Assembly (NCBI GenBank): GCA_015660855.1
Contig: JACSDG010000027.1
Location: 5,305 to 69,304 of the forward strand
Direction of reading: 5' to 3'
Length of the DNA: 64,000 nucleotides
From: Magnetococcales bacterium
Lineage (GTDB): Bacteria; Pseudomonadota; Magnetococcia; Magnetococcales; UBA8363
Numbering within the stretch: the stretch's first letter is position 1; every line of letters begins with the position of its first letter. This document shows positions 1 to 63,983 of the stretch, one piece after another. The position numbers were made by a program, and so were the translations under genes. The notes under the pieces were generated by a model, which made no database searches, was not told the DNA's origin, and worked only from the letters and a program-made list of their open reading frames with translations.

Positions 1-2
1 TG

Positions 3-191: not shown

Positions 192-1482
192 CTCATCGCA
201 TCACTTTCTACCAAAAGGCTGGAAGTCAACCACTTTGGGTGAAGTCGCTGAATGTACGCTTGGGGGCACCCCATCAACAGAGGTACCGCAATTTTGGGGA
301 GGGTGCATTCCCTGGATGGCATCAGGAGATGTGCATTTGCGTAGAGTTTATGACGTACCTGGTCGCATAACTGAATCAGGACTTGCTGCTTCGAACGCAA
401 CTCTAACACCACCCCCTGCGGTCGCAGTGGGTCTTGCTGGTCAGGGAAAGACTCGTGGAACTGTTGCTCTAACGCTTTGTACATTAAGCACAAACCAGTC
501 TATTGCGCTATTGTGTGGCAACGCAACTGAGCTACAGACCGAGTACCTATTTCACAACTTGGATCTTAGGTATGAGGAACTGCGCGCTCGATCGTCTGGC
601 GGTGGTCGCGGAGGTCTATCAAAAACGATTTTGACATCGATACCGATCGACCTACCACAGATAGATGAACAAAGCCGAATTACGCAAATCCTCGACACCC
701 TCGACACCGCCATCCGTGAAACCGAGGCGATTATCGCCAAGCTCAAGGCCGTCAAGCAGGGCATGCTGCACGACCTGCTGACGCGAGGGCTGGACGCCAA
801 CGGCGAACTGCGCCCACCCCAAGCCGAGGCCCCGCATCTCTACAAGGAGTCGCCACTGGGGTGGATTCCAAAGGAGTGGGAAACAAAGCAGCTTGGGGAA
901 CTGGCGGAAGTATCGCGGGGTAAATTTACTCATCGACCGAGAAATGATCCGGCCTTTTTTGGCGGACTGTATCCGTTTATCCAGACGGGAGACGTTGCGG
1001 CTGCGCATGGAGAGTATATATCGACTTACTCGCAAACCCTCAGTGAGCGAGGCATTACGGTAAGTCAGGAATTTCCAGCCGGAACCATTGCCGTTACAAT
1101 CGCAGCCAATATTGCAGATACAGCGATATTAGCTTGCCCGATGTACTTTCCAGATAGCGTTGTCGGCGTAGTCGCATGCCCTGGAAATAACATTAGATTT
1201 ATCGAGTTGTCGATTCGACAGGCAAAGAGAACCCTGGATGCGCGAGCACCTCAAAGTGCTCAAAAAAACATCAATCTCCAAGACTTGCGTCCATTGATCG
1301 TCGCATTGCCTAACAAGCCTGAGCAGGATAAAATTGCAAAGCATTATGAAGCGATCCAATCCCGAATCATCAAAGAGCAAATCTTTGCTGACAAATTGCG
1401 CAAAAAGAAATCCGGCCTCATGGACGACCTCCTAACCGGTCGCGTCCGCGTCACGCCCCTGCTGGAAGGCTCTCCCCCATGA
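184..1482 (+). CDS. hsdS: Type I restriction enzyme specificity subunit HsdS (two target-recognition domains)
   Basis: 432-aa ORF. It has the central conserved spacer (IAKLKAVKQGMLHDLLTRGLD) and the repeated C-terminal spacer (LRKKKSGLMDDLLTGRVRV) typical of HsdS. Located between hsdM and hsdR. Confidence 0.9.
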   Translation: MCDSSHHFLPKGWKSTTLGEVAECTLGGTPSTEVPQFWGGCIPWMASGDVHLRRVYDVPGRITESGLAASNATLTPPPAVAVGLAGQGKTRGTVALTLCTLSTNQSIALLCGNATELQTEYLFHNLDLRYEELRARSSGGGRGGLSKTILTSIPIDLPQIDEQSRITQILDTLDTAIRETEAIIAKLKAVKQGMLHDLLTRGLDANGELRPPQAEAPHLYKESPLGWIPKEWETKQLGELAEVSRGKFTHRPRNDPAFFGGLYPFIQTGDVAAAHGEYISTYSQTLSERGITVSQEFPAGTIAVTIAANIADTAILACPMYFPDSVVGVVACPGNNIRFIELSIRQAKRTLDARAPQSAQKNINLQDLRPLIVALPNKPEQDKIAKHYEAIQSRIIKEQIFADKLRKKKSGLMDDLLTGRVRVTPLLEGSPP

Positions 1483-2537
1483 CCAACCCTCCCCCTGCCT
1501 CGCTCATCCCGCCGCCCAACGGTTACGCCGACTGGCTGGCCGAGTTGAAATCCCGTATCCACACGGCCCAGCAACGGGCGACACTGGCGGTCAACCGGGA
1601 ATTGGTGCTGCTTTACTGGCAAATCGGGCGCGACATTCTGGAGCGACAGGCTCGGGAGGGCTGGGGGAGCAAGGTGATTGAGCGGTTGGCGCATGATCTG
1701 CGCACCGCCTTTCCGGACATAAAAGGCTTTTCCACCCGGAATCTGAAATACATGCGTGCCTTTGCCGAGGCGTGGCCAGAGACCGAATTTGTGCAGCAGG
1801 CTGCTGCACAATTGCCGTGGTTCCACTTATGTACCTTGATCGACAAGCTGAAAACCCGCGCTGAACGGGATTGGTATCTGGCCAAAGCCGTGGAGCATAA
1901 CTGGTCACGCAATATTCTGGTAATACAAATTGAAGTCAATGCGCGTGGTCGATCCGGCCAAGCAGTAAACAATTTTGCACTATGTCTGCCCAAACCGCAA
2001 TCCGATCTGGCGCGGGAATCCTTGAAGGATCCGTACCGCTTCGATTTTCTTGGATTAACCAATGAAGCGCAAGAACGCGAAATCGAATCAGCCCTGGTGC
2101 AACACGTCACCCGCTTTCTGCTGGAACTGGGCGCGGGCTTTGCCTTTGTCGGGCGGCAGGTGCTGCTGGAGGTTGGCGACGATGATTTTTTTATCGACCT
2201 GCTATTTTACCATCTCAAGCTGCACTGTTATGTGGTAATCGAGCTTAAGGGGGGAAAATTCAAGCCAGAACACTTGGGACAATTGGGCTTTTATCTGACC
2301 GCCGTGGATGCGCAGGTCAAGAGCGAACAGGACGCCCCCACCATCGGCCTGCTGCTGTGCAAGAGCAAAAACAAGGTGGTGGCCGAGTACGCGCTGCGAG
2401 ACAGTGCCCAACCCATGGGGGTGGCCGAATATCAATTGCTGGAAAACCTGCCAACGGAATTGCAAACCAGCCTGCCGAGCATCGAGCAAATTGAACGGGA
2501 GTTGGCCGGTCTGCCGGACGATGCCGACGAGACTTAA
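1479..2537 (+). CDS. YhcG-like PD-(D/E)XK nuclease domain protein (DUF1016 family)
   Basis: 352-aa ORF whose ATG overlaps the hsdS stop (ATGA). The C-terminal core FFIDLLFYHLKLHCYVVIELKGGKFKPEHLGQLGFYL matches the D...E-x-K signature and context of DUF1016/YhcG proteins often embedded in type I R-M loci. Confidence 0.8.
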   Translation: MTNPPPASLIPPPNGYADWLAELKSRIHTAQQRATLAVNRELVLLYWQIGRDILERQAREGWGSKVIERLAHDLRTAFPDIKGFSTRNLKYMRAFAEAWPETEFVQQAAAQLPWFHLCTLIDKLKTRAERDWYLAKAVEHNWSRNILVIQIEVNARGRSGQAVNNFALCLPKPQSDLARESLKDPYRFDFLGLTNEAQEREIESALVQHVTRFLLELGAGFAFVGRQVLLEVGDDDFFIDLLFYHLKLHCYVVIELKGGKFKPEHLGQLGFYLTAVDAQVKSEQDAPTIGLLLCKSKNKVVAEYALRDSAQPMGVAEYQLLENLPTELQTSLPSIEQIERELAGLPDDADET

Positions 2538-2549
2538 GGGAGAAGGCTG

Positions 2550-5500
2550 ATGGGTTGGGAACTCGACGAGGTGGAAAAACCCTTTATCGCCCAGTTACAA
2601 AAACTGGGCTGGCAGCCTATCGAAGGCAGCCTGGACGATCCGCCCGTCACCCACCGCAGCAGTTTTACCGAGGTGATTCAGGAAAATGTACTGCGTGGGC
2701 AACTGCGTACCCTCAACCCCGGGCCGGACGGTCTGCCCTGGCTGGACGATGCCCGCATCTCTGAAGCGGTGGCGGCCATCACCCGATTGGGCACCCACAA
2801 ACTGATGGAGGCCAATGCCAGGGCCACAGAACTGTTGATCAAGGGGCTGACGGTGGAGGGTTTGCCGGGTTGGGACGGCGGGCGGGGCCGGACCATTTGC
2901 TATATCGATTGGGAGAATGCCAGCAACAACCAATTCACGGTCGTCAACCAATACCGGGTGGATTGCCTGCCCGGTTTCAACAGTGCCAAGGCGTTCATTG
3001 TCCCCGATTTGGTGCTGCTGGTGAATGGCTTGCCGCTGGTGGTGGTCGAGTGCAAAAGCCCCTCCATCCCGGAACCTCTGGCGGCAGCCGTAGACCAATT
3101 GCGCCGCTACAGCAACCAACGCCGCGCTGCCTTCGAGGTGAAGGAGAACGAAGGCAGTGAAGCCCTATTTGCCACCAACCAACTGCTGGTAGCCACCAGC
3201 CTTGACGCGGCCAGGGTGGGGTGTGTGGGTGCCCTTTTCGAGCATTTCGCCCAGTGGAAAACAGTGGTGGACCCGAACGGCTCGGGCAGCGAGTTGGAGG
3301 TGGCCACCAGCCTGGACCGCCCCACACTCTCCGAACAGGAGCGACTGATCGCTGGCCTGCTCGCCCCCACCCACCTGCTGGATGTGGTTCGCAACTTCAT
3401 GCTGTTCACGCAAAGCGACGGACAAACCATCAAGATGGTCTGCCGCTACCAGCAATACCGGGCGGTCAACCGGGCAATTGCCCGGCTCAAGAGCGGTCAA
3501 ACCCGTTTGCAACACGGCGAGTATGACCAGCGCGGCGGCATTATCTGGCATACCCAGGGGTCGGGTAAGTCGCTGACGATGGTGTTTCTGGTGCGCAAAA
3601 TGCGCAGGGATGCCCAGTTGCGCCGCTTCAAGGTGATGGTCATCACCGACCGCAAAGATCTGCAACGCCAATTGTCGGGAACCGCCACCCTGACCGGCGA
3701 AACGGTCGAAGTGGCCGACAGCACCACAGGCATCCAGGCCCTGGCGCGGCGCAAAGGTCCGGGGCTGATCTTTGCCACCATCCAGAAATACCGGGACAAC
3801 GATACCGCAGACGAGACACCGCCGACGGGAGAAGCCGCTTCGGTTCTTGCCAATAAAACCAAAGCCAAGAAAAAGCACAAGGCCAAAGAACAATTTGAGA
3901 TTTTGAACGAAGACGACAGCATTCTGGTACTGGTGGACGAGGCCCATCGTACCCAGGCGGGTGATCTCCACGCCAGCCTGCTGGCGGGTTTGCCCAACTG
4001 CGCCCGCATCGGCTTCACAGGCACCCCGATCATTATGGGCGAAAAAAAACGCACCCATGCCATCTTTGGCGCGTTCATCGACCGCTACACCCTCAAGGAA
4101 TCCGAAGCCGATGGGGCAACGGTGCCGGTGCTCTACGAAGGCCGCACCGCGCAGGGCGCAATCAAGGACGGTGCCAGCCTGGACGAATTGTTCGAGGATC
4201 TGTTCCGCCAGCACACGCCCGCCGAGTTGGAAGCGATCAAGCGAAAGTATGCCACCAGAGGCCACATCTTTGATGCCCCGGCACTCATCGCCGAAAAGGC
4301 ACGCGACATCCTCCGTCATTATGTGACCAACATTCTGCCCAACGGCTACAAGGCCCAGGTGGTGGCCTACAGCCGACTGGCAGCACTTCGCTATTTTGCG
4401 GCCTTGAAGCAGGCCCGCGACGAATTGCTGGCGGAAGCTGCGGCCCTGCCCGCCCTAGACAAGATAATGGACGACGAGGCCTTATGCCAACGCCCGCCCA
4501 GGGTACAGGCCGTGGTGCAGGCCTGGCGTTACCGCGACACCCTCGCCAAAATCGAGTTTGCGCCCATCATCTCTGGCAGCAACAACGACGATTCGGCATG
4601 GAAACCATGGACCGAAGGCACAGCCCAGGAGCAGTTGATCAAACGCTTCAAAAAGCCGCTGTCGCACGACAAACCGGACAAGGCTGACCCGTTGGCATTT
4701 TTGGTGGTCAAGTCGATGCTGCTAACCGGCTTCGATGCCCCCATTGAGGGGGTGATGTATCTGGACCGCCCAATCCGCGAAGCCGAATTGTTGCAGGCCA
4801 TTGCCCGCGTCAACCGTACCGGCTTTGGTAAGCGGTGTGGTATCGTGGTGGATTATTATGGGGTGGCCCGGCATCTGCGGGATGCCCTGGTTGCCTATGC
4901 CGAGGAAGATTTGGAGGGCACGCTCGCCAGTCTGAAAGATGAAATACCGGTACTGCGTGCCCGGCATCTGCGGGTGGTGGATCTGTTCCGGCAACAGGGG
5001 ATCGACTCCCTGGATGACGCGGAAGCCTGCATTGAGGCCCTGGGCAGTGAAAAGCTGCGTGCCGAGTTTTCGGTCAAGCTTAGGGAGTTTCTGGCCTCCA
5101 TGGACACGGTCCTGCCCCGGCCTGAGGGATTGCCCTTTGCCCGCGATGCCAAGCGACTGGCCTTCATCTACGACCGCGCCCGCAATCGCTACAAAGACAC
5201 GCCGGTTCTGGGCAAGGATGTGGGTGCCAAAGTGCGCAAACTGATCGATGATCATCTGATCTCGCTGGGTATCGATCCGAAAATTCCGCCGATCCAACTC
5301 ACCGATGCCGAGTTTGATACCCACTTGGCCAGTGCCGCCAACGACCGGGCCAAGGCTTCCGAGATGGAACACGCAATCCGCTCCCACATTCGCAAGCATC
5401 TGGATGAAGACCCGGTGCGGTTTCGCAAGCTGTCGGAACATCTGGACAAGATCCTGCAAAACCTGGGCAAGGAGTGGGACGCGCTGATTGCGCAACTGCA

Positions 5501-5882
5501 AAAGATGATCGACGAACTGCGCGTGGAGACCACCCGCGACGACACCACACCGGAGAATCTGCCTGAACACTATGCGCCCTTCCTGCGCACCGTGCTGGAT
5601 GTGGTGTATGGAGAGCAAATACCCGCCCCGGACGCACTGTTTCGCATAAAAGATGTGGCGGTCGAACTGGTAGATGGGTTGGTGCAGGAGCTGCAAAACA
5701 ACCGGGACATCTGGCAACCGCACCGGCGAGCTGCGCAGGAGGAACTGAATGGTTATCTGTTCGACCATCTGATGCGTCTGCGTCCGCCTCTGGTCGATAC
5801 CGACTTGGCGGGGGTGCTGGCCGACCGGTTGATGGAACAGGCCCGCGCCAATCATGACAAGCTGATACAGGTGTATGAATGA
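2550..5882 (+). CDS. hsdR: Type I restriction enzyme endonuclease/translocase subunit HsdR
   Basis: 1110-aa ORF. N-terminal nuclease motif PDLVLLVNGLPLVVVECKSP. Helicase motif I HTQGSGKSLTMVF, DEAH box LVLVDEAHRTQ, motif VI QAIARVNR. RBS-like GGGAGAAGG lies upstream. Confidence 0.95.
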   Translation: MGWELDEVEKPFIAQLQKLGWQPIEGSLDDPPVTHRSSFTEVIQENVLRGQLRTLNPGPDGLPWLDDARISEAVAAITRLGTHKLMEANARATELLIKGLTVEGLPGWDGGRGRTICYIDWENASNNQFTVVNQYRVDCLPGFNSAKAFIVPDLVLLVNGLPLVVVECKSPSIPEPLAAAVDQLRRYSNQRRAAFEVKENEGSEALFATNQLLVATSLDAARVGCVGALFEHFAQWKTVVDPNGSGSELEVATSLDRPTLSEQERLIAGLLAPTHLLDVVRNFMLFTQSDGQTIKMVCRYQQYRAVNRAIARLKSGQTRLQHGEYDQRGGIIWHTQGSGKSLTMVFLVRKMRRDAQLRRFKVMVITDRKDLQRQLSGTATLTGETVEVADSTTGIQALARRKGPGLIFATIQKYRDNDTADETPPTGEAASVLANKTKAKKKHKAKEQFEILNEDDSILVLVDEAHRTQAGDLHASLLAGLPNCARIGFTGTPIIMGEKKRTHAIFGAFIDRYTLKESEADGATVPVLYEGRTAQGAIKDGASLDELFEDLFRQHTPAELEAIKRKYATRGHIFDAPALIAEKARDILRHYVTNILPNGYKAQVVAYSRLAALRYFAALKQARDELLAEAAALPALDKIMDDEALCQRPPRVQAVVQAWRYRDTLAKIEFAPIISGSNNDDSAWKPWTEGTAQEQLIKRFKKPLSHDKPDKADPLAFLVVKSMLLTGFDAPIEGVMYLDRPIREAELLQAIARVNRTGFGKRCGIVVDYYGVARHLRDALVAYAEEDLEGTLASLKDEIPVLRARHLRVVDLFRQQGIDSLDDAEACIEALGSEKLRAEFSVKLREFLASMDTVLPRPEGLPFARDAKRLAFIYDRARNRYKDTPVLGKDVGAKVRKLIDDHLISLGIDPKIPPIQLTDAEFDTHLASAANDRAKASEMEHAIRSHIRKHLDEDPVRFRKLSEHLDKILQNLGKEWDALIAQLQKMIDELRVETTRDDTTPENLPEHYAPFLRTVLDVVYGEQIPAPDALFRIKDVAVELVDGLVQELQNNRDIWQPHRRAAQEELNGYLFDHLMRLRPPLVDTDLAGVLADRLMEQARANHDKLIQVYE

Positions 5883-6628
5883 TACCGGAACCGGTACGGT
5901 CGTGCGACACGCCACCCGCTGTGGTGGGTAACAGCCTGACTGTGGATGATCTGCAATTCACCCTCCGGCGCAGCCTGCGCCGCCGGACGCTACAGATTAC
6001 GGTGGAACGCGATGGTAAACTGGTGTTGAGCAGCCCACCAGATGTGGATGCGGCTAGGCTGGAAGCCTTTGTCCTGGAAAAACGGTTTTGGATCTATACC
6101 AAACTGGCCGAGAAAAAACAGTTGCGGCGGTGTGTGCCCACCAAAGAATATGTGGATGGCGAGGGTTTTTTCTATCTTGGACGCAGCTATCGGTTGCGAC
6201 TGGTGGACGGGCAGTGTGTGCCGGTTAAACTGCTGCATGGCCGCTTCCTGTTGCGCCGAGATTTGGTTGAGGATGGGCGCAACCATCTAATCCAGTGGTA
6301 CAGCAACCATGCCAAGGGATGGCTGTGGGGCAAAGCCCAGGAGTACCTGACGCGCATGGAAGTCAAGCCTGCGGGGATAAAAGTGCAGGATCTGGGCTAT
6401 CGCTGGGGATCCTGCGGGAAGGGCGACTGGCTCTATTTCCACTGGAAAACCATCCTGCTGCCAGCGCACATTGCCGAATATGTGGTGGTACATGAACTCG
6501 CACACCTGCACCAACCCCATCACACCCCGGAGTTCTGGCTGCGCGTTGAACGCGCCATGCCCGACTTCGAGCGACGGAAAATCTGGCTGGCGGAACACGG
6601 CATAGAGGTGGAAGGCATTTGGACATGA
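5879..6628 (+). CDS. DUF45/YgjP-like zinc metallopeptidase (M48-like, HExxH)
   Basis: 249-aa ORF whose ATG overlaps the hsdR stop (ATGA). HExxH motif in VVHELAHLHQPHHTPEFW. This family commonly terminates type I R-M operons. Confidence 0.85.
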   Translation: MIPEPVRSCDTPPAVVGNSLTVDDLQFTLRRSLRRRTLQITVERDGKLVLSSPPDVDAARLEAFVLEKRFWIYTKLAEKKQLRRCVPTKEYVDGEGFFYLGRSYRLRLVDGQCVPVKLLHGRFLLRRDLVEDGRNHLIQWYSNHAKGWLWGKAQEYLTRMEVKPAGIKVQDLGYRWGSCGKGDWLYFHWKTILLPAHIAEYVVVHELAHLHQPHHTPEFWLRVERAMPDFERRKIWLAEHGIEVEGIWT

Positions 6629-6636
6629 GGCCCTTA

Positions 6637-6820
6637 GGGCAAAAAAACAAAATCAAAACCCTGGGGCTGCGCCCCTAGCCCCCCCTTGGGGGGCAGTAAA
6701 ATCAAAGTCAAAGTCAAAAGAAAAACCTTGGTGGGCTGCCGCCTCTAAACCGCAGTACGGGGGGGATGATCCCCCCGCAACCCCCGCAGAAATTTTCGCC
6801 AAACCTTGATTTTTCCGATA
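6637..6820. repeat. Modular intergenic repeat, reverse orientation (modules F-C-B-A)
   Basis: It fills the convergent gap between the DUF45 gene and rne. 6641-6720 is the reverse complement of 39556-39645. 6721-6820 is the reverse complement of the element seen at 51657-51760 and 52117-52205. Confidence 0.9.
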
Positions 6821-6822
6821 CA

Positions 6823-9232
6823 TCAATGAGAATCGTTGGCATCGGAAGAGATCGGACTGTCGTTCAAAAACACATGCTGGTCCTGGAACTCCTGATTTTC
6901 CGTTTCCTGGGAAACAGCCCCCCGAGATGGCAACGGATCAGAATTTCCAATATTATTTCCCACATCCCCCTCTTCCCTGGCTCCGGCAACGAAACCCGGT
7001 TTTCTGCGCCCCCTGCCCCGACCACCACGACGCGGCCGCTTGCGCTTGGCAGCGACATCTCCCTTGTTGGACTGCCCCAAACCGGGATCATGGGCGTGCG
7101 GCCCAAGTTCCTGATCCTGGTCATCATCTTCATCGTCATCATCGGCAGACAGAGAACTCGATTCCCCGGTCGGTTTGCTATTGACATCATGCAGGGTGTA
7201 GAGACCGGGAAAACGCATGGCCAAAGCTTCCACATGGCGCATATCCTGCTGTGGCGTTGGTGGTACTTCGTTCTGACCACCATTGACCGTCTCCGAACCA
7301 CCCTGGCTGGCCTCGGTTGTCGGCGTCGCCAAAGCCTCGGGGGATCCAGGAATTTTCTTGCGCCGCCGCCTGCGCCGACGTTTCTTCTTCCCCGCTTCGC
7401 TGGACTCGGAAGTGACAGACTCCCGATTTTCGCTAACTTTGGCAGGCTCAACCTTAACCTCAACCGACTCCACTTCCTCCGGTGGACTGACAACCTTGAC
7501 CTTTTCGTCCCGAACTTTGTCTTTTTTGGATCTTTCCATATGGTTGGTATTGAATTCGGGAGGTTGCAGACGCATGTCGGCGTGGATGCCGAGCGTCACC
7601 TGGTTGGTCTCTTCCAACCGCACCAGGGAGGCACGCTTATGGTTGAAAAGATAATTGGCCACCTCTGGAGAAACCTGGTAGTTGAAAACGCCATATTTCC
7701 CCTGGGCAACATCTTCCTCGATGCAACGAAACGTATAGACGGCGGCGGATTCAACCGACCGGATGGTGCCCAACCCCTTGCAACGGGGACATTCGATGCG
7801 GTTGGTCTCGTTGAAGGTGGGCCGCAGGCGTTGACGTGACAATTCCAAAAGGCCAAACTGGGAAATGCGCCCAATCTGCACTTTGGCGCGATCGCTCTTG
7901 AAGGCATCCTTGACCCGCTTTTCCACCTCCCCGACGTGCTTGCGATCCTCCATGTCGATAAAATCAATCACCACCAACCCCCCCAGGTCGCGCAAACGCA
8001 ACTGCCGGGCAATCTCATCAACCGCCTGAAGGTTGGTCTTGAAGGCGGTGGATTCCACATCCTTTTCACGCGTGGATCGGCCAGAATTGATGTCGATGGT
8101 CACCAAAGCCTCGGTGCCGTTCGTGCATGGTCTCAATCTGACTTTCCACCTGGTAACGGGCAAAGAGGGGGATGCTCTCCCGATAGGGTTGAACCACCTT
8201 GACATATCTGGGCATCAACAGGCGCATGAAATCCTTGCCCAAACGATAACCCTCCTGCCCTTCGATAAGAATTTCCTCCATGTCGGTGGTATAAAGATCG
8301 CGAATGGTGCGGATGATCAGATCCCCTTCCTCGTGAATCAGACAGGGAGGCTTCCTGGTCTTGGCTCCTTCCAGAATCATTTTCCACAAACGGGTGAGAT
8401 AGCTGATGTCACGGCTGAATTCACGCTTGTTGCGCTCCATTCCGGCAGTACGGATGATCAGACTCATCTCGATGGGAATGGCAAGGCTGCTCAGGATGGC
8501 TTTTAAATTTTTACGTTCGGCAACATCGGTAATTTTGCGGGAGATGCCACCGCCTCCGGGATTCTCGGGTAAAAGTACAGTATAACGACCCGCCAACGAC
8601 AGATTGGTGGTGAGAGTGGCCCCTTTGTTGCCTCGGGATTCCTTGACCACCTGCACCAACACGGTTTGACCGCGTTGCAAAAATTTTTGGATGGGGGGGG
8701 GACGACGCCGGTGTTGGCGACGGATTTCTTCCACAGGGGGCCGGTCTTCTTCCTCTTCCCCATCCCCATCCTCCGGGGGAGAAACATCGCGCTCGACGGT
8801 AGTTTCCCCTTCACCAGCTTCGGCGACGGGAGGTCCGTTTTCAGCATCGATCAGGGAGGAATCTTGAATTTCGGGAGGGACTTCGGTGACATCAACCTCT
8901 GACTCTACCTCTACCTCCCCTTCCCCTTCGTCATCGAAGGATTCTTCGGTAAACTCCACCACCGGGACTTCCTTGGCGATCAGGCCCCCGGGGGTAAAAT
9001 ATTTGGGGTGGATGTCGTTGACCGAAAGAAAACCCTGGCGTCCATCATGAAAATCGACGAAAGCCGCTTGAAGCGAAGGTTCCACCCGCGAAACCCGACC
9101 CAGATAGATGTTACCCTTAATCTGTTCCTTGTTGGCGGTTTCAATGTCAAGATCCACGAGCCGGTTGTCCTGTATGATGGCAACACGGATTTCCTCAGGG
9201 TGGGTGGCGTCCACCAGCATGCGTCTGGTCAT
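6823..9232 (-). pseudogene. rne: Ribonuclease E (rne), reading frame broken by a short internal deletion near 8112-8126
   Basis: The N-terminal ORF (9232..8066) is MTRRMLVDATHPEEIRVAII...GNIYLGRVSRVEPSLQAAFVDF... (S1 domain with a long acidic insert). The C-terminal ORF (8205..6823) carries TEALVTIDINSGRSTREKDVESTAFKTNLQAVDEIARQLRLRDLGGLVVIDFIDM plus an Arg-rich/acidic tail. The two halves are in different frames, and the segment expected between ...QIETMHER and NGTEAL (x-V-x-L-x-SGG-x-x-V-I) is absent. Confidence 0.85.
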
Positions 9233-9433
9233 TCGTTATGGTTCCTTTGTGTTCGAAGTGCCGTCCGGCCACGGGCCGATTGCGGTAATCCGCTGGCGGG
9301 CGAAGCGGCAAGGTTCTAATATGTAAAGTGCTTGGAATAAAGAAAAAAATAGGGTATGCAGGCGGGATAACCAACAGTGCGTCCGAACATTTGAGATAAT
9401 CATTCATGCAGGTCATTATAGAAAGGGTTTGTC

Positions 9434-10420
9434 ATGAAAGCAAATGCGGTGATACCCACCAGTGAAAAAACCGGTGTTTCCCTGGTTTTGGTGCGTGATA
9501 CCGATGCAGGAATGCGTCTGGATCGATTTTTAAAACAGCAGCTTCCCGGTCTGCCGGCGGGGTTGATCCAAAAATTGTTGCGGACCGGACAGGTGCGTCT
9601 GGACGGTTGCCGCGTCAAGGGCGATCAACGTTTACAGGTTGGGGGGATGGTACGCATTCCTCCGGTTCGTCCCCCGACCCAACCTCAGCCAGGAGTCCCC
9701 CCGGTCCCACCCCAGGCCATGCTCAAAGCCCTCGACGGGTGTGTGTTGTTGGAAGGGGAAGGTTTCCTGGTCATCAACAAACCGCCGGGTTGGCCGGTCC
9801 ACGGCGGGACCGGGCAGGCGGTCGGGTTGATCGACGGTCTACGTCACCTTTGGAAAGAATCGCCCCATCGACCCGAATTATGTCACCGTCTGGATCGTGA
9901 CACCTCAGGATGCCTGTTGCTTGCGACCGATCGCAAGGCGGCAAGCCTGTTGACCGCTTCTTTCCGCGATGGCATGGTGGAAAAATCCTACTTAGCCCTG
10001 GTGCGGGGGACTCCCAACCCGCCCGAAGGGATCATCGTCGCATCTCTGGCCAAGGGGGTAGTCAAATCGGGTGAACGCATGGTCGTCACCGACGACTCGG
10101 GCCAGAATGCCTTGACCCGATACCGGGTCAGCGAAAGCTTTGGCAGAGTTGCCTTACTCGCGGTCACCCTGGAAACAGGACGCACCCACCAGGTACGCGC
10201 CCATCTTCAGGCTGCGGGCTTTCCCCTGGCGGGTGACGGCAAGTATGGGGATCGCGCCTTCAATCGCACCATGAAATCTCTGGGACTCAAACGCATGTTT
10301 CTGCACGCCCGACATTTAACCTTCCCCCATCCCAAAACCGGCGCGTCGGTCGAGGTCACCTGCCCGTTGGACCCTTCCTTGACAAAAGTTTTGGAAAGAC
10401 TGCGACAAGGGGACCAATGA
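9434..10420 (+). CDS. rluC: RluA-family 23S rRNA pseudouridine synthase (RluC-like)
   Basis: 328-aa ORF. N-terminal S4-like segment (RLDRFLKQQLPGLPAGLIQKLLRTGQVRLDG) and catalytic motif HRLDRDTSGCLLLA. Divergent from rne, as in the conserved rne-rluC arrangement. Confidence 0.8.
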   Translation: MKANAVIPTSEKTGVSLVLVRDTDAGMRLDRFLKQQLPGLPAGLIQKLLRTGQVRLDGCRVKGDQRLQVGGMVRIPPVRPPTQPQPGVPPVPPQAMLKALDGCVLLEGEGFLVINKPPGWPVHGGTGQAVGLIDGLRHLWKESPHRPELCHRLDRDTSGCLLLATDRKAASLLTASFRDGMVEKSYLALVRGTPNPPEGIIVASLAKGVVKSGERMVVTDDSGQNALTRYRVSESFGRVALLAVTLETGRTHQVRAHLQAAGFPLAGDGKYGDRAFNRTMKSLGLKRMFLHARHLTFPHPKTGASVEVTCPLDPSLTKVLERLRQGDQ

Positions 10421-10421
10421 C

Positions 10422-11135
10422 ATGGATCCACAGATGGACGCATGTCCTTATGACCTGATTATTTTTGATTGCGACGGCACCCTGATGGACAGTCTGGATG
10501 GAATCTGGCGTGGTGTGAACCTGGCCATGTCGGCACAGGGACTCGACCAGCAGTTCAGCCCTGCCGAGGTCGCCGGTATTGTCGGCTTGTCACTGGAGAC
10601 CGCCTTTGCCCAACTGCTGCCCAAGGCGGGAGAAAAAACCTGGCAGGCACTGACACAGGCCTACAAGGAACAATTTCGCAAACTGGCCAATGAAGGTATG
10701 GTCGAGCCGCCCCTGTATCCCGGAGTAAGGGCAACCTTGCAACGATTACACGCCGCCGGTCTGGTATTGGCCGTGGCCACGGGGAGATCCATGGCAGGCC
10801 TGGAAAGATCACTCCAGGCCCACCATCTGGGACATTTTTTCACCTTTCATCAAACCGCCGATACCGCCCCCAGCAAACCCCACCCCGCCATGGTGACCCG
10901 GATCCTGGCAGACAGCGGACTGACAGCCGCACGCGCCATGATGGTAGGGGACACCGATTTTGACATGCGCATGGGCCGCCATGCCGGGGTAACCACCTGC
11001 GCGGTCACCTTCGGCTGCCATGACCGTGAACGTTTGGCCAAGGCCAACCCCGATTTCTGGCTTGATCACATGGGGGATCTGCCAGATCTCCTGAAACTTG
11101 GACCGGAAAAGACCATTGGGACGGCGTCGGCCTGA
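10422..11135 (+). CDS. HAD-superfamily hydrolase (phosphoglycolate-phosphatase-like)
   Basis: 237-aa ORF. Motif I IIFDCDGTLMDS, motif IV MVGDTDFDMRMGRHAG. Confidence 0.8.
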   Translation: MDPQMDACPYDLIIFDCDGTLMDSLDGIWRGVNLAMSAQGLDQQFSPAEVAGIVGLSLETAFAQLLPKAGEKTWQALTQAYKEQFRKLANEGMVEPPLYPGVRATLQRLHAAGLVLAVATGRSMAGLERSLQAHHLGHFFTFHQTADTAPSKPHPAMVTRILADSGLTAARAMMVGDTDFDMRMGRHAGVTTCAVTFGCHDRERLAKANPDFWLDHMGDLPDLLKLGPEKTIGTASA

Positions 11136-11340
11136 AAATCGCCCCCAACCACATCTAAAACAGGCCAGCTTTTGGGCCAAAAATGAAAAAAAACGCCGTC
11201 GAATACCGGAAAATGCCCGGCAAGGGTGGAGAAAATTTCTGGATCGTGGCAAAATTCATCTTTTTGACGGATGCGTGGGGTCAGACAGGATCCAGAAAAA
11301 TCACAAACCCGGCGAGCGAATTTAAAAGCGAGAAAAAAAC

Positions 11341-12744
11341 ATGGGTGCCAGGACACTTTTTGAAAAAATATGGGACGAACACCAAATACGCCAGGATGCG
11401 GATGGCACCGCCCTGATCTACATCGACCGGCACCTGGTGCACGAAGTCACCTCGCCGCAAGCCTTTGAAGGTCTTAGGCTTAATCAACGCCAAGTGCGGC
11501 GGCCCAATGCCACCTTCGCCGTTCCCGACCACAACGTCCCCACCAAGAATCTGTCCCGTGGCATCTTGGATCCCGTGTCACGCCTCCAGGTGGAAACGTT
11601 GGAAAACAATTGCCGTGAGTTCGGCATTCGCATCTTTGGCATGGGCGATCCCCGCCAGGGTGTCGTCCACGTCATGGCCCCGGAACAAGGATTGATCCTC
11701 CCCGGCCTCACGGTCGTCTGTGGCGACTCCCATACCGCCACCCATGGTGCTTTCGGGGCACTGGCGTTTGGCATCGGCACCTCCGAAGTAGAACATGTGC
11801 TTGCGACACAAACCCTGACGCAAAAGCGTCCAAAAACCATGCGCATCACCCTGACCAATGCCCTGGGTACCGGAGTCACCGCCAAGGATATGGTCCTCCA
11901 TCTCATCGGCCAGATCGGCACCGCCGGTGGCACCGGCCATGCGGTGGAATTCGCTGGCGAGGCGGTAAAAACTCTCTCCATGGAAGGTCGCATGACCCTG
12001 TGCAACATGGCCATCGAAGCAGGTGCCCGCGCCGGCATGGTGGCAGTGGATGACCACACCATCGACTATCTGGCCGGTCGCCCCTTCGTGCCCAAGGGGA
12101 AAGATTGGATCGATGCGGTCATTCATTGGCGTCACTACGTCTCCGACCCCGGTGCCCGGTTTGATCGCGAAGTCAAACTGGATGCCGGTCACATCGAACC
12201 CCAGGTCTCCTGGGGAACATCGCCGGAAATGGTGGTCCCTGTTTCAGGAAAAGTACCCGACCCAGCCAGCGAAACCGATTCGGTGCGTCGAGGTTCCATG
12301 GAAAAGGCCCTGAACTACATGGGATTGAAACCCGGCGTGCCCATTACGGAAGTTCTTCTTGATAAAATTTTCATCGGCTCGTGCACCAACGGGCGCATCG
12401 AAGACCTCCGAGCGGCGGCGATGGTCATCAAGGGACGCCGAATCGCCAACAACATCAAACTGGCCCTCGTCGTCCCCGGCACAGGCCTGGTCAAACGCCA
12501 GGCCGAAGAGGAAGGATTGGACCGCATTTTCATCGACGCCGGTTTTGAATGGCGCGAGCCGGGTTGCTCCATGTGCCTGGCGATGAACAACGATGTCCTC
12601 CTGTCAGGCGAACGGTGCGCTTCCACCTCCAACCGCAACTTTGAAGGGCGTCAGGGGGCCGGGAGCCGAACCCACTTGGTCAGCCCTGCCATGGCGGCAG
12701 CAGCGGCCATTCATGGCCATTTTGTCGATGTCCGGGGGATGTAA
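11341..12744 (+). CDS. leuC: 3-isopropylmalate dehydratase large subunit
   Basis: 467-aa [12 protein letters not shown]...[44 protein letters not shown], and the Fe-S cysteines region IGSCTNGR...CSMCLAMN. Confidence 0.95.
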
Positions 12745-12787
12745 AACCTCACCAAACGGAAAACCACCAACCTAAGGAGCATGCCTA

Positions 12788-13456: not shown

Positions 13457-13506
13457 CCGCAAAGATGACGGCAATAAATATCTGATTTTTCAAGGAGAGC
13501 AGGATC

Positions 13507-15314: not shown

Positions 15315-15329
15315 CCGGGTATCGGGATT

Positions 15330-15381
15330 TGGGGCAGTGCCCCAAGGTTTTGGTTCTTTGCCCGAAGGGCATCATGTTCTG
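15330..15381. repeat. Short copy of the intergenic repeat (modules C-D)
   Basis: GGGGCAGTGCCCCAAGGTTTTGGTTCTTTGCCCGAAGGGCATCATGTTCTGG lies between leuB and asd. It matches ...CCACCAAGGTTTTGGTTTTGTGCCCGCAGGGCATCATGTTCTG at 51743-51784. Confidence 0.8.
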
Positions 15382-19798: not shown

Positions 19799-19823
19799 GT
19801 AACCATTCGGTCTCCCCCCCCCC
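19799..19823. repeat. Isolated repeat module E (GTAACCATTCGGTC-C run)
   Basis: GTAACCATTCGGTCTCCCCCCCCC is the reverse complement of GGGGGGACCGAATGGTTAC at 39791-39809. Related copies lie at 45226-45247 and 63958-63979. Confidence 0.7.
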
Positions 19824-19868
19824 TCTTCGTTGAAGGTTGATATCGGGTTTTGCGAAGGACTAATAGAA

Positions 19869-20825
19869 ATGAAACAACGGCGGTTTATCAGCTTTGATTG
19901 GGCTTTGAAACGGCTTTTGCGTAGCAAGGCCAATTTTGAAATTTTGGAGGGTTTCCTCTCCGAACTTCTTCGCGAGGATGTGCGCATCGTTGAAATCTTG
20001 GAGAGCGAAAGCAATCAGGAAGCTCGCAACAACAAATTCAACCGTGTCGATCTCAAGATCAAAAACACCCGGGATGAAATTATCATCGTTGAGCTGCAAT
20101 ATGAGCGAGAATGGGACTACTTGCAGCGGTTACTCTTCAGCACCGCCAAAGCCATCACCGAACACATGACAGAAGGCAAGCCTTACGCCAGTGTAATCAA
20201 GGTCATCACCATCAGCATTCTCTATTTTGATCTGGGGCGTGGCAGCGATTATGTCTACGTAGGTAATACCTCTTTCAGGGGGTTGCACACCCAGGAAGAA
20301 CTGGCCTTGGACGAGGGACAGAAAGCTTTGTTTCAACGCCCTTCGGTTGCCGCCATTTTCCCAGAGCATTACTTGATCAAAGTGAAAAATTTCGATGATA
20401 TCGCCCGAGATACCCTGGACGAGTGGGTTTATTTTTTGAAAAATTCCGATATCCGTGATGATTTTACGGCTCGTGGCCTAAAGAAAGCCAAAGAAAAGCT
20501 TGATGTCCTGCAATTACCAGAGACAGAGCGCAAGGCCTACGAACGCTATCAGGAAGAACTGCATGACCAGGCAAGCTTTGTACTCTCCACCTATGGTGCT
20601 GGTAAATGGGAAGGACGACAGGAAGGTGAGCAGATTGGCGAGCAGAAAGGCGAGCAGAAAGGCAAGGCAGAAATGCTGACCCGTCAGCTACAACGCCGTT
20701 TCGGCACCGTGCCCGACCGAACCCGTGAGAGAATTGCCAAAGCTGACCTGTCATCATTGGAGGAATGGAGCCTTCGATTCGTAGATGCACAGTCGCTGGA
20801 CGATATTTTCTTGGACAAGGTGTGA
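19869..20825 (+). CDS. Rpn-family recombination-promoting nuclease / PD-(D/E)XK putative transposase
   Basis: N-terminus ISFDWALKRLLRSKANFEILEGFLSELL...NRVDLKIKNTRDEIIIVELQ is the Rpn/TIGR01784-type nuclease core. The C-terminal LTRQLQRRFGTVPDRTRERIAKADLSSLEEWSLRFVDAQSLDDIF resembles the DUF4351 tail. ATG 19869 is preferred over the TTG at 19830. Confidence 0.75.
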   Translation: MKQRRFISFDWALKRLLRSKANFEILEGFLSELLREDVRIVEILESESNQEARNNKFNRVDLKIKNTRDEIIIVELQYEREWDYLQRLLFSTAKAITEHMTEGKPYASVIKVITISILYFDLGRGSDYVYVGNTSFRGLHTQEELALDEGQKALFQRPSVAAIFPEHYLIKVKNFDDIARDTLDEWVYFLKNSDIRDDFTARGLKKAKEKLDVLQLPETERKAYERYQEELHDQASFVLSTYGAGKWEGRQEGEQIGEQKGEQKGKAEMLTRQLQRRFGTVPDRTRERIAKADLSSLEEWSLRFVDAQSLDDIFLDKV

Positions 20826-20910
20826 CGCTGCCTTCGGAGTAAGTTTTCCAAAATCGTTGGGTACCCAGTCGTTACCAAAAACGAAGATTATCTTAACAGG
20901 TTTATAGTTG

Positions 20911-21006
20911 TTACATGGTTTCATCCCCACGTAGCGCAGCAATTGCAACTTTGGCCTTGAATTCTGGTTTGTGCTGTTTGCGCTGTTTGCTCACAATTCT
21001 CTCCAT
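20911..21006 (-). pseudogene. IS3-family transposase OrfA N-terminal remnant
   Basis: Own minus-strand translation gives MERIVSKQRKQHKPEFKAKVAIAALRGDETM*. The ...PEFKAKVA..ALRG(D/E)(E/K)T... pattern is the N-terminal HTH of IS3/IS911-type OrfA proteins. It is truncated after 31 codons and no OrfB follows. Confidence 0.45.
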
Positions 21007-21323
21007 GTTTGGTGTGAATTAGAGAGCATCATGTGCCAGGGAGAGGACTGAATGATTACGTTACATACAGGTGTTAATTTTGCTATTGACTTTTTGTCCA
21101 AAGGGCATCATCTTCCCCGGTCTAAATTGACGTACCAGCAGGACCTGCCAAAAGGCGACGACATCCATCCGTACCACACCGGTTGTCAGATGTCGCGTAA
21201 GGGCGGAAATGGCCGAAACGATGATCAAGGCCGTCAATGCTAAGTGGGGAGTAGGTTTGGAATATACTTAAATAAAAAGTAAATGTTTCATGTGAACTAC
21301 AAAAAAAAAGGAGACTTTCAGAC

Positions 21324-25971: not shown

Positions 25972-26009
25972 TTTTCCTCGTACCCATGACTTCCCAATCC
26001 ATTGGTTCA

Positions 26010-26070
26010 CGTTTCGGAAAAATAAAGTTTGGAAAAAATTATTGCGGGGGTCCGGGGGAGATGATCCCAA
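26010..26070. repeat. Partial intergenic repeat, forward (modules A-B)
   Basis: CGTTTCGGAAAAATAAAGTTTGGAAAAAATTATTGCGGGGGTCCGGGGGAGATGATCCC matches 39468-39520 and 51657-51712. Confidence 0.85.
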
Positions 26071-26211
26071 TGCCATTAACTTCGCATACCCCAAGAAACT
26101 GTCCTGAAATAACGGAATGTTCACTTCAGTCCAAGGGAGATTTTCAAATGATACCAGAAGATCGTAACCACTAGGTTATCTGAAAAAATTTATAGCGTCA
26201 TAGCCAGACTT

Positions 26212-26348
26212 ATGGCTGATGTCCATTTTATTGCGAGACATCGCCAGAGTCCTGAGGATTTTACCCGATGTCGCATACTAACCTCTTGACGCAAAGCACT
26301 ACCCCGCGAACATTTTTCCTGATCTCTATCGGCAACACTGTGGGATAA
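26212..26348 (+). pseudogene. Possible IS4-like transposase N-terminal remnant (frameshifted, truncated)
   Basis: Own translation gives MADVHFIARHRQSPEDFTRCRILTS*, then in the +2 frame NLLTQSTTPRTFFLISIGNTVG*. The RHR.S..DFTR.R.L(T/P) pattern recalls the N-termini of some IS4-family transposases. This is recalled from memory only, so it is weak. Confidence 0.3.
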
Positions 26349-26400
26349 TCCCTCCCTTAACCCCCGCAATAGTTGTTTCTGGGGGCAAGGGGAGGTTCCG
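26341..26400. repeat. Partial intergenic repeat, reverse (module B and inner part of A)
   Basis: GGATAATCCCTCCCTTAACCCCCGCAATAGTT closely matches GGATGATCCCCCCTTAACCCCCGCAATAATT at 63910-63941. It is inverted relative to the copy at 26010-26070. Confidence 0.8.
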
Positions 26401-30679: not shown

Positions 30680-30711
30680 ATGTATCGGAAAAGCAAAGCA
30701 ACCCACCCTGG

Positions 30712-33836: not shown

Positions 33837-33877
33837 CTCCCGCAACAATTTTTTCCAAACTTTGTTTTTCCGATACG
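33837..33877. repeat. Isolated outer module A of the intergenic repeat (reverse)
   Basis: CTCCCGCAACAATTTTTTCCAAACTTTGTTTTTCCGATACG compares with CCCCCGCAGAAATTTTCGCCAAACCTTGATTTTTCCGATACA at 6781-6822. Confidence 0.7.
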
Positions 33878-34020
33878 TTGAAATCCAGGACCGCCGGAGC
33901 ATGGAAAAACTGTTTCGGTGTGATCCGACCTTAACGGGGTGGTCCTTGAAATATGGGCTTTTCTTTGTTACACATCCAAGGTAGAAACCAACCCATCCTC
34001 CCGATCACCATGATGTCATC

Positions 34021-39427: not shown

Positions 39428-39810
39428 TATTCAGTCCCCACCCCGCCTTTTTTTCTTGACGTTTCGGAAAAACTAAAGTTTGGCAAAAAATTTTGCGGGG
39501 GTCCGGGGGGGATCATCCCCCCCGGCGGAGGTTTGGAGGCAGCAGCCCACAAGATTTTTCTTTTGACTTTGACTTTGACTTTGACTTTACTGCCCCCCAA
39601 GGGGGGTCTAGGGGCGCAGCCCCAGGGTTTTGATTTTGTTTTTTTGCCCGCAGGGCATCATGTTCAACATGATGCCCTGCGGGCACAAAGTCAAAACCAA
39701 AACCTTGGTGGGCTGCCGCCTCCAAACCTTCGCCGGGGGAGATGACCCCCCCGGACCCCCGCAATAGTTTCACCCCCAAAGCAGAGAGGAGGGGGGACCG
39801 AATGGTTACG
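39428..39810. repeat. Composite head-to-head (palindromic) double copy of the intergenic repeat, with a (GACTTT)4 insert
   Basis: The left arm has modules E'-A-B-C-F-D and the right arm D'-C'-B'-A'(inner)-E. Perfect 20-nt arms TGCCCGCAGGGCATCATGTT / AACATGATGCCCTGCGGGCA flank the central C at 39664. The GACTTT x4 run lies at ~39563-39588. Confidence 0.9.
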
Positions 39811-39817
39811 AATCGAG

Positions 39818-45220: not shown

Positions 45221-45392
45221 AGGGGGTGACCATTCGGTCCCCCCCTGGCATGTGATGCCCTTCGAGCAAGAACCAAAAACCTGGGGGCTTTGCTCCCAGA
45301 CCTCCATAGGCAATGATTTTTTTCATTTTAATCCAAAAGCAAAACCTTGGAGGCAGCAGCCTCCAAGGTTTTGCTTTTTGCCCGGAGGGCAT
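45221..45392. repeat. Intergenic repeat variant (modules E'-D'-C'...C-D) with a perfect 14-bp-stem hairpin
   Basis: AGGGGGTGACCATTCGGTCCCCCCC...; AAAACCTTGGAGGC-AGCA-GCCTCCAAGGTTTT at ~45342-45373; TTTGCCCGGAGGGCATCATGTTCC. Confidence 0.85.
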
Positions 45393-45521
45393 CATGTTCC
45401 TGGTTATCTTGTAACTCCGGAAGAAGTCCTTAAACATTACCTGGACTCCCTTGACATGACCCAGACTCAGCTGGCATCGCAGTCTGGATTGGCTCAAACA
45501 GCCTACCTGGAAAGGAAGTAA
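45390..45521 (+). pseudogene. XRE-family helix-turn-helix fragment (both ends truncated)
   Basis: ...LVTPEEVLKHYLDSLDMTQTQLASQSGLAQTAYLERK* resembles the first two-thirds of an XRE/HigA-type HTH (L(T/S)Q.ELA..SG.....I...ERGK). It has no start codon of its own; the upstream in-frame sequence is the repeat element. Confidence 0.3.
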
Positions 45522-51595: not shown

Positions 51596-51656
51596 AGTCC
51601 ATTGATTTTGTCCATGTTCGTGGCTATAATCGGGATAGGCTGTCGGGGTGTGCGCG

Positions 51657-51784
51657 TATCGGAAAAGCAAGGTTTGGCCGAAATTTGTGCGGGGGTCCGG
51701 GGGAGATCATCCCCCCCTTGCTGCGGTTGGGAGGCGGCAGCCCACCAAGGTTTTGGTTTTGTGCCCGCAGGGCATCATGTTCTG
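51657..51784. repeat. Intergenic repeat, complete forward copy (modules A-B-C-D)
   Basis: TATCGGAAAAGCAAGGTTTGGCCGAAATTTGTGCGGGGGTCCGGGGGAGATCATCCCCCCCTTGCTGCGGTTGGGAGGCGGCAGCCCACCAAGGTTTTGGTTTTGTGCCCGCAGGGCATCATGTTCTG. Confidence 0.9.
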
Positions 51785-52107: not shown

Positions 52108-52116
52108 TTTTTTTGT

Positions 52117-52233
52117 AGCGGAAAAATAAGGTTTGGCAAAAATTATTGTGGGGGGGATTATCCCCCCCGTGCTACGGTTTGGCGGCGGTAGCCCACCAAG
52201 GTTTTGTTTTTTGCCCGCAGGGCATGATGTTCG
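52117..52233. repeat. Intergenic repeat, complete forward copy (modules A-B-C-D)
   Basis: TAGCGGAAAAATAAGGTTTGGCAAAAATTATTGTGGGGGGGATTATCCCCCCCGTGCTACGGTTTGGCGGCGGTAGCCCACCAAGGTTTTGTTTTTTGCCCGCAGGGCATGATGTTCGG. It is a direct repeat of 51657-51784. Confidence 0.9.
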
Positions 52234-63743: not shown

Positions 63744-63761
63744 AAACCATCACCCTGTCCG

Positions 63762-63983
63762 AACAAGATGCCCTGCGGGCAAAAATCAAAGTCAAAAACA
63801 GTGAAGGAAGTTTTTTGTCCAAAGGATCAAAAAAAGAACCTTGGAGGCTCCGCCTCCAAACCGCAGCAAGCGTATAAACGGGGTCGGTAGGAGCTTAAGT
63901 TAATGACATTGGATGATCCCCCCTTAACCCCCGCAATAATTTCAACCTTAAAAAAAAGGGGAGGGACTGAATGGTTACCCTTG
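63762..63983. repeat. Intergenic repeat, reverse orientation with insertions (modules D'-F'-C'-B'-A'(inner)-E)
   Basis: GAACAAGATGCCCTGCGGGCAAAAATCAAAGTC..., AACCTTGGAGGCTCCGCCTCCAAACCGCAGC..., GGATGATCCCCCCTTAACCCCCGCAATAATTTCAACC..., AAAAAAAAGGGGAGGGACTGAATGGTTAC. It starts 19 nt after the sensor-kinase stop. Confidence 0.85.

Follow-up and report, generated by a model that had tools for sequence, protein, structure and literature searches.

Insertion sequences of the IS91 family have mostly been studied as plasmid carriers of resistance and virulence genes, and the requirements at their ends and their mechanism are still being worked out. Members of the family have no inverted repeats and generate no target duplication; the target beside the oriIS end is 5'-GTTC or CTTG, with T always in second position, and a single subterminal palindrome adjoins the point of cleavage at terIS (5'-GTTC in IS801 and IS1294; PMC13181058). 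A laboratory mini-IS91, built from 89 bp of terIS plus 82 bp of oriIS, is able to transpose with TnpA provided in trans (PMC13181058), and IS801 yields miniature mobile derivatives of 229–679 nt in its natural host (PMC3189936), both of which make two-ended short elements credible as substrates. Here we analyse a family of intergenic repeats in 64,000 nt of DNA from a Magnetococcales bacterium (assembly GCA_015660855.1, contig JACSDG010000027.1, positions 5,305–69,304 of the forward strand; hereafter the window, to which coordinates refer unless another locus is named), which a first-pass annotation had described as six hairpin-rich modules, A to F. We consider it highly probable that these repeats descend from an IS91-family insertion sequence (HUH/Y2, rolling-circle type) as miniature, non-autonomous forms that have kept both ends of the parent, and, by analogy with the systems above, the short copies were probably moved in trans.

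The identification was based on full-length relatives in which the same ends flank a transposase gene. On a Desulfocapsa contig (L085), a 430-aa open reading frame (ORF) is flanked by the reverse complements of modules D and A and matches the Pfam models Y2_Tnp (9.6e-36) and Zn_Tnp_IS91 (1.3e-13). The transposase scored 260–270 bits against the NCBIfam IS91 equivalog NF033538 (cutoff 125), and an alignment with TnpA from an IS91 of E. coli and from an IS801-like element of Pseudomonas syringae showed ~25% overall identity and an insertion of ~31 aa in this transposase, with the HxHxH motif, Y289-x3-Y293 and the zinc-binding Cys clusters invariant. The Y2/HUH and zinc-binding assignment holds for L085, L100–L115, L119 and L120. 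At 16 of 16 metagenome loci carrying relatives 72–90% identical, a D-type end (GAACATAATGCCCTNCGGGCA) lies ~110–125 nt upstream of the transposase start, and an A-type end (AAACTTTGTTTTTCCGATACAT) was found ~190 nt past the stop in nine of them, the other seven being cut by a contig end or holding a partial gene. Full elements at these loci measure ~1.6 kb, and near-identical ones occur in at least three different flanks. The protein database contained 561 relatives of the transposase at E ≤ 1e-20, mostly on contigs of insertion-sequence size and including proteins from Magnetococcales metagenome-assembled genomes (MAGs).

Two of these Magnetococcales MAG loci, L120 and L119 (the latter recorded at three places in all), hold full elements of 1636–1642 bp that can be compared directly with the window. 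Their oriIS reads ATGTTTCGGAAAAAC or ACGTTTCGGAAAAATAAA, the latter being identical to the first 18 nt of the window copy at 26009, and their terIS reads ...GGGGCGAAGCCCCACGGTTTGCCGTTGACTTTTCCTTTGACTTTTTGCCCGAAGGGCATCATGTCC, the terIS region (GGGGCGAAGCCCC..TTGACTTTTCCTTTGACTTTTTGCCCGAAGGGCATCATGTCC) matching modules F, (GACTTT)n and D of the window. On sequence comparison, module A is the oriIS end, which in the full element stands ~190 nt downstream of the transposase stop and beside the target tetranucleotide, and F, (GACTTT)n and D make up the final ~65 nt on the terIS side of the Magnetococcales insertion sequence. The first-pass annotation had named identity with the ends of a known insertion-sequence or MITE (miniature inverted-repeat transposable element) family as the finding that would count against its own proposal, and at family level this is what was found, A and D being oriIS and terIS of the IS91 family. 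A full-length IS91-type element in L120 (region 4263–4370) and a composite copy in the window (region 39791–39904) each have a tRNA gene whose 3' end is no more than ~20 nt away.

The ends also resemble those of the IS91 family in layout. The oriIS (ATG/ACGTWTCGGAAAA) and terIS (TGCCCGMAGGGCATCATGTTC) are not reverse complements of one another, and there are no terminal inverted repeats. The oriIS tip, ATG/ACGTWTMGGAA, resembles that of the IS801-like element (cttg followed by ATGCATAGGAA) and of IS91 (ACGTATAGGAAA); the canonical tips are also given as cttg followed by ATGCATAGGAATTTC and as ACGTATAGGAAATTG, respectively. At the opposite end, terIS consists of a TGCCC-NNN-GGGCA hairpin, 4 nt and GTTC, the same plan as in an IS91-like terIS from E. 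coli (GCAGCC-GCCA-GGCTGC-CGTG-GTTC), and its stem is Watson-Crick paired at 612 of 625 positions across 125 distinct sites. G-T wobble pairs in this hairpin gave no strand assignment (6 G-T versus 3 A-C variants in the same 125 sites). Among 54 complete short elements (64–330 nt, median 151), none was flanked by direct repeats of ≥3 nt, and the distribution was equal to that of re-paired flanks. In 51 of the 54, the second base of the tetranucleotide 5' of oriIS was T; GTTC was the commonest sequence and CTTG was also seen. Bases past the terminal ...GTTC of terIS were unconstrained. The corresponding oriIS flanks in the window are CTTG (39459), GTTC (26009), ATTG (6823), GTGC (51654), TTTT (52113) and CTGA (30680). 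The autonomous relatives agreed with the IS91 family in every family feature that was tested.

Within the window, the intergenic sequences were checked and all modules listed by the first-pass annotation were recovered in place or within a few bases, those at 6637–6820 included; where it had claimed at least 12 repeat loci, we counted ~15. The module D pattern (TGCCCNNAGGGCATNNTGTTC, up to 2 mismatches) matched nine times, against 0.04 matches expected from dinucleotide-preserving shuffles. Repeat material amounts to ~1.5 kb, or 2.4% of the window and about one fifth of its non-coding DNA. As had been claimed, the repeats lie outside coding sequences: every copy is intergenic or overlaps stop codons only, and the long ORFs that overlap them (39513–39908, 45219–45602 and one with a TTG start at 51685) are spurious products of listing ORFs mechanically.

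The modules had been described as recurring in varying combinations. Their recurrence was confirmed, but they are not independent units: A, B, C, F and D keep one order and one relative orientation, which makes them segments of a single oriented element of 61–207 nt, and the apparent combinations are deletion and insertion variants, with truncated copies and head-to-head pairs making up the rest. Read from its 5' end, the element begins with module A (ACGTWTCGGAAAAA-AAGGTTTGG..ATTGCGGGGG), followed by B (GGGGGGGATCATCCCCCCC) and by C, an imperfect GC hairpin and then GGTTTTG; an optional block comprises (GACTTT)n, CCCCCCAAGGGGGG and then F (GGGGCGCAGCCCC plus GGTTTTG), and the 3' module D (TTTT-TGCCCGMAGGGCA-TCATGTTC) ends in TCAT-GTTC. 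This optional block, ~75 nt long and with CCCCCCAAGGGGGG forming a hairpin of its own, distinguishes copies of 203–207 nt from those of 119–129 nt and is the main difference between the four complete copies in the window, which are 83–86% identical over aligned columns and are accompanied by ~10 partial copies (Table 1). B and C, by comparison, are lineage-specific filler between the two ends. A sigma-54 promoter, considered for the TTGGCA-N-TTGC motif in module A, was ruled out by its GG-to-GC spacing of 13 instead of 11.

Two further features of the interior were observed. The hexanucleotide microsatellite (GACTTT)n, with n ranging from 3 to 5 or more, stands beside the terIS end (window 6700–6718 and 39565–39590; L061; L063) and is apparently derived from TTGACTTTTCCTTTGACTTTT of the full-length Magnetococcales insertion sequence in L120. 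Hairpin B is interrupted at the same position and by the same variant sequence (AATGYCATTAACTT...) in two copies (26066–26090 and 63870–63908), over ~39 nt in one and ~275 nt in the other; the interruption may represent another small element, with the GATC-centred palindrome as its target.

The description of the repeats as rich in hairpins was upheld for some local structures and not for whole elements, whose folding energy was no better than that of shuffled sequences (z = +0.4 to −1.9, A-to-D strand). Only some local hairpins stood out (for instance 45330–45400, z = −7.8), and the impression of abundant hairpins is partly an effect of composition because of the runs of G and C. At the Rfam gathering threshold the window matched only tRNA-Leu, and ten related loci gave no match.

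A D-pattern scan covering one genome per species (per-genome copy numbers are lower bounds) placed more than 40 loci in Magnetococcus sp. DMHC-6 among the matches listed. The other listed matches came from other Magnetococcales, Desulfocapsa, other Desulfobulbales/Thermodesulfobacteriota, Leucothrix, Thiosymbion and a Roseivirgaceae MAG. Every lineage listed has the same two ends, ATGTATCGGAAAAWCAAAGTTT at the 5' and TTTTGCCCGMAGGGCATYATGTTC at the 3' side, around an interior that varies by lineage, and such conserved, asymmetric ends, common to several phyla around a variable interior, pointed to transposase recognition sites. Copies frequently abut head to tail (...CATCATGTTC directly followed by ATGTATCGG...); a Xer/dif-like or integron attC reading of this junction was dropped once the same ends had been found around a Y2 transposase.

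In the sampled DMHC-6 loci (~310 kb), 33 complete copies were present with a median identity of 88% and a maximum of 98%. A search of 40 DMHC-6 loci with the transposase (tblastn) gave no match. Seven of the loci (L003, L032, L052, L053, L083, L095 and L097) show a recurring double structure, oriIS-interior followed by oriIS-interior-terIS, in which the first copy lacks terIS. When nested insertion was tested in this genome, the 3' remainder of the interrupted copy was missing every time and no clean boundaries were found, which suggests deletion between direct repeats or skipping of terIS as the origin of the double structures.

One place in the window bears on past mobility, the conserved leuC-GST-leuD-leuB-asd block, where the leuB-asd spacer of 82 nt holds the 61-nt mini element. 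In relatives with 87–88% identical Asd, leuB and asd overlap by 4 nt (L121, L122) or lie 1 nt apart (L124), and in L123 they are separated by 66 nt of unrelated sequence. Orthologous sites differ here in whether the element is present, with one locus compared. The transposition chemistry and the mobilisation in trans are inferred by homology with IS91, IS801 and IS1294. On that analogy, a full-length copy elsewhere in the genome would supply the transposase, which would nick the A-to-D strand 3' of the NTTN tetranucleotide at oriIS; the strand would be displaced as far as terIS, where a cut after GTTC would be followed by joining 3' of a different NTTN site, an outcome that would leave neither inverted repeats nor a target duplication. 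Since the element's own GTTC end and its T-runs would create new targets, head-to-tail arrays and nested copies could follow, and recombination or deletion between copies might then yield the mixture of partial copies that the window shows.

Several observations weigh against derivation from an IS91-family parent or against its present activity. The 64-kb window contains no transposase gene by tblastn, and neither B nor C could be traced to any full-length element, so that only ~20–65 nt are alignable at each end. The canonical GTTC or CTTG flank is found at only 27 of 117 module-A-end sites, most sites having A/T-rich NTTN, and the exact cleavage positions are placed by homology. Three composites in which module E replaces oriIS are not accounted for by simple oriIS-to-terIS transfer. 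Finally, the window copies are ~84% identical and several are truncated, and they may be old and immobile. The truncated and mosaic copies (26009–26068, 33837–33878 and 45226–45399) would also fit an account in which each short copy decayed independently from a full-length insertion sequence by deletion in place, without ever being amplified as a miniature; partial IS801 fragments in Pseudomonas syringae genomes have been judged to be mostly rearrangement products (PMC3189936). We regard this account as very improbable, given that independent deletions would differ in their breakpoints, whereas dozens of copies, with 33 complete ones in the DMHC-6 sample and four in the window, have the same internal junctions and filler hairpins. 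These junctions are absent from full-length elements, which argues for amplification as short elements, and the short copies also occur in head-to-tail arrays.

Selection by the host offers a different explanation, according to which the repeats are transcription terminators or mRNA 3'-end stabilisers and their likeness to transposon ends is secondary or results from domestication. In several copies a GC hairpin is followed by a T-run on the A-to-D strand, many copies begin within a few bases of a stop codon, and the A-to-D direction agrees with that of the oriIS-side gene in 53 of 82 cases (p = 0.011) and of the terIS-side gene in 59 of 86 (p = 0.0007), as judged from crude ORF calls. However, the most conserved parts of the elements are the transposon ends, constant across phyla, while the hairpin interior varies, the opposite of what selection for termination would produce, and folding of whole elements has already been seen to be no better than that of shuffles. 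The orientation bias could arise by itself from a preference for T-rich NTTN targets or T-runs, or from insertion biased to one replication strand. A consensus terminator scan flagged no element, although it also missed the perfect hairpin and T-run at 45344–45377 and is not decisive. We therefore think it very improbable that termination or stabilisation is what the repeats were selected for, and their sequence makes a terminator side-effect possible. Least probable, to the point of being hardly tenable, is a system of repetitive extragenic palindromic (REP) sequences or bacterial interspersed mosaic elements (BIMEs) spread by a REP-associated tyrosine transposase (RAYT, TnpA-REP), or the related possibility of IS200/IS605-derived palindromic elements or TnpB guide-RNA remnants. 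Asymmetric ends, a subterminal hairpin, a short specific target and the lack of target duplication would all suit it, but these are general traits of HUH single-strand transposition; the transposase found 19 times between these ends is of the Y2 IS91 type, has a zinc-binding N-terminus and is not a Y1 TnpA, RAYT or TnpB, the repeats contain no GTAG/CGTC-tagged palindrome of 20–40 nt, and Rfam, which includes RNA families associated with IS605 and TnpB, gave no match to them.

Module E (GTAACCATTCGGTCCCC) had been included in the same family by the first-pass annotation but is a separate repeat that does not belong to the IS91-type element. It is present in five copies in the window, the fifth being one half of an inverted pair, and resembles the terminal inverted repeats beside IS66-type transposase genes in L001 and L120. 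IS66 elements are recognised by terminal inverted repeats that start with GTAA and by an 8-bp target duplication. The inverted pair in the window encloses an Rpn/PDDEXK_2 'putative transposase' gene (PF12784; TIGR01784 at 1.2e-19), and on either side of the pair stands one copy of an imperfect 8-bp direct repeat, GGTACAGA and GTTACATA, matching at 6 of 8 positions. The stretch may be an inverted-repeat-bounded cassette that carries the Rpn gene instead of IS66 transposase genes. A degenerate terIS adjoins it, and elsewhere E replaces the first ~20 nt of oriIS, in the composites at 39665–39809 and 63761–63978 and in degenerate form at 26342–26400.

Table 1 Copies of the IS91-type repeat, and the separate E-bounded element, in the 64-kb window
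Feature	Position	Strand	Details
Complete copy, 203 nt (locus first reported)	6621..6823	-	oriIS (A) at 6823; degenerate terIS TGCCCTAAGGGCC-TCAT-GTCC at 6621
Mini element, 61 nt	15319..15379	+	Between leuB and asd; shortened oriIS GTATCGG, hairpin GGGGCAGTGCCCC and T-run, intact terIS ending GTTC
Different element: inverted E pair	19799..21115		E at 19799–19817 (+) and 21046–21066 (-) bracketing the Rpn/PDDEXK_2 gene 19830–20825; degenerate terIS at 21095–21115 (+)
Truncated copy	26009..26068	+	oriIS flank GTTC followed by ACGTTTCGG; first half of hairpin B, interrupted by AATGCCATTAACTT...
Truncated copy	26342..26400	-	Half of hairpin B, ATTGCGGGGG, degenerate E-like motif
Solo oriIS-like end	30680..30703	+	ATGTATCGGAAAAGCAAAG; directly 3' of the stop codon of a glycosyltransferase gene
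oriIS-end fragment	33837..33878	-	Module A alone; upstream of gatC, in the spacer of a divergent gene pair
Complete copy, 207 nt	39459..39665	+	Canonical IS91 target CTTG beside oriIS, (GACTTT)4, hairpin F, intact terIS ending GTTC
Head-to-head partner	39665..39809	-	terIS, C, B and distal A; first ~20 nt of oriIS replaced by E (39791–39809)
Degenerate copy	45226..45300	-	Hairpin, T-run, terIS-like hairpin TGCTCGAAGGGCA-TCACATGCC; E abuts (45226–45244)
terIS-side fragment	45330..45399	+	Perfect 20-bp hairpin (module C), intact terIS ending GTTC, without oriIS
Complete copy, 129 nt	51654..51782	+	A-B-C-D; downstream of a DUF4340 gene
Complete copy, 120 nt	52113..52232	+	A-B-C-D; 6 nt after a stop and 7 nt before the next start; oriIS slightly degenerate, TTGTAGCGG
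Composite	63761..63978	-	Intact terIS, C-like hairpin, interrupted B, distal A, E (63959–63978) replacing oriIS

The copy at 6621–6823 occupies the whole spacer of two convergent genes: the TGA stop of an RNase E/G gene ends on the first base of the element, and the last codons and TGA stop of a YgjP-like gene lie inside its terIS end. The first 6628 bases of the window comprise a type I restriction-modification cluster (HsdS, a DUF1016/YhcG protein, an HsdR of 1110 aa and the YgjP-like metallopeptidase) that ends exactly at this element; HsdM lies upstream in L099, and the cluster is absent from the syntenic position in L123. Window bases 1–14068 are also present on the ENA contig ERZ27245799:k141_430700, and the Asd protein encoded in the window is 100% identical to one that NCBI attributes to a Magnetococcales MAG. 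Relative to the otherwise identical ENA contig (L099 12239–12279), 41 bp are missing at window position 8116/8117, so that the RNase E/G gene, 816 aa long in L099, appears here as two ORFs, 6823–8205 and 8066–9232; the gap is either an assembly artefact or a strain variant. The head-to-head pair at 39459–39665 and 39665–39809 shares base 39665 and forms a palindrome of ~350 bp just downstream of tRNA-Leu(CAA) (39818–39904, minus strand), and this palindrome accounts for sub-threshold matches to microRNA precursors in Rfam. The terIS of the composite at 63761–63978 lies 18 nt past the stop of a kinase gene (58605–63743) whose 1712-aa product combines Ser/Thr kinase, AAA_16 ATPase, GAF and HisKA_3/HATPase_c histidine kinase domains.

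As to novelty, the first-pass annotation did not recognise the repeats as a described family, and this is borne out in one respect and corrected in another: no paper describing them was found, but their ends A and D belong to a known insertion-sequence family. In the full-text literature (ISfinder and TnCentral lay outside the scope of this search), no paper contained these end sequences and none dealt with high-copy miniature families derived from IS91, the nearest results on IS91-derived MITEs or Magnetococcus repeats being the one-ended IS801 miniatures and the laboratory mini-IS91. The repeats are selfish mobile DNA of a known kind; the miniature high-copy form is new to the literature searched, and no new biological principle is involved. 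We put forward, tentatively and as something that may well not hold in full, that this is the first natural high-copy family of miniature non-autonomous IS91-type elements in prokaryotes and a bacterial counterpart of non-autonomous Helitrons, with near-identical ends in Magnetococcales, Desulfobulbales, Bacteroidota and Gammaproteobacteria, an interior remade in each lineage, a preference for T-rich gene 3' ends and possible co-option as terminators and as a source of stop codons.

A natural family of 60–200 nt that keeps ~20–45 nt of oriIS and ~25–65 nt of terIS would define by evolution the minimal sequences that the transposase needs, would show trans-mobilisation at genome scale in the wild, and would extend the MITE concept to rolling-circle transposons, whose miniatures escape MITE-finding software because they lack inverted repeats. 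It is also of use in annotating magnetotactic and sulfate-reducing bacteria: roughly a fifth of this window's non-coding DNA is explained by it, as are many spurious ORFs and cases of gene ends supplied by the elements.

Compared with known systems, the family is closest to IS91, IS801 and IS1294/IS1294b, with which it has in common an HUH/Y2 transposase with a zinc-binding N-terminus, the lack of inverted repeats and target duplication, the GTTC/CTTG target and a subterminal GC palindrome by GTTC; it differs in having no orf121, in a target relaxed to A/T-rich NTTN and, in the window, in copies of 61–207 nt without a transposase gene. Mini-IS91 and the IS801 miniatures likewise indicate that short ends suffice with a transposase in trans and that miniatures arise and move (PMC13181058; PMC3189936). 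The IS801 miniatures, however, are continuous right-end fragments without the terIS hairpin and at very low copy number, whereas the elements described here have both ends, a filler of their own and dozens of copies per genome, and occur in several phyla.

The earlier proposal of a REP/MITE-like system holds insofar as this is a dispersed, non-autonomous family of mobile repeats, and fails as to both REP/RAYT and classical MITEs. Like bacterial MITEs (Correia/NEMIS, RUP, ERIC, Nezha and Chunjie), the elements are small, high-copy, intergenic, structured and non-autonomous, and MITEs too may overlap gene ends and affect transcripts; a classical MITE was nevertheless ruled out, for these have terminal inverted repeats and target-site duplications produced by DDE transposases, and the present elements have neither. 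REP/BIME-RAYT systems are similar in being intergenic palindromic repeats just past stop codons that are linked to an HUH enzyme, but REPs are single palindromes of 20–40 nt with a GTAG/CGTC tag and a Y1 RAYT, as opposed to elements of 61–207 nt with two distinct ends and a Y2 IS91 transposase. Non-autonomous Helitrons offer an analogy of mechanism only: they too are HUH Y2 rolling-circle derivatives without a transposase; their ends are asymmetric, with a hairpin lying a few bases short of the 3' end, they cause no target duplication, and they reach high copy number and contain micro- or minisatellites. They differ in their Rep-helicase fusion proteins, in insertion between A and T and in their 5'-TC...CTRR-3' ends.

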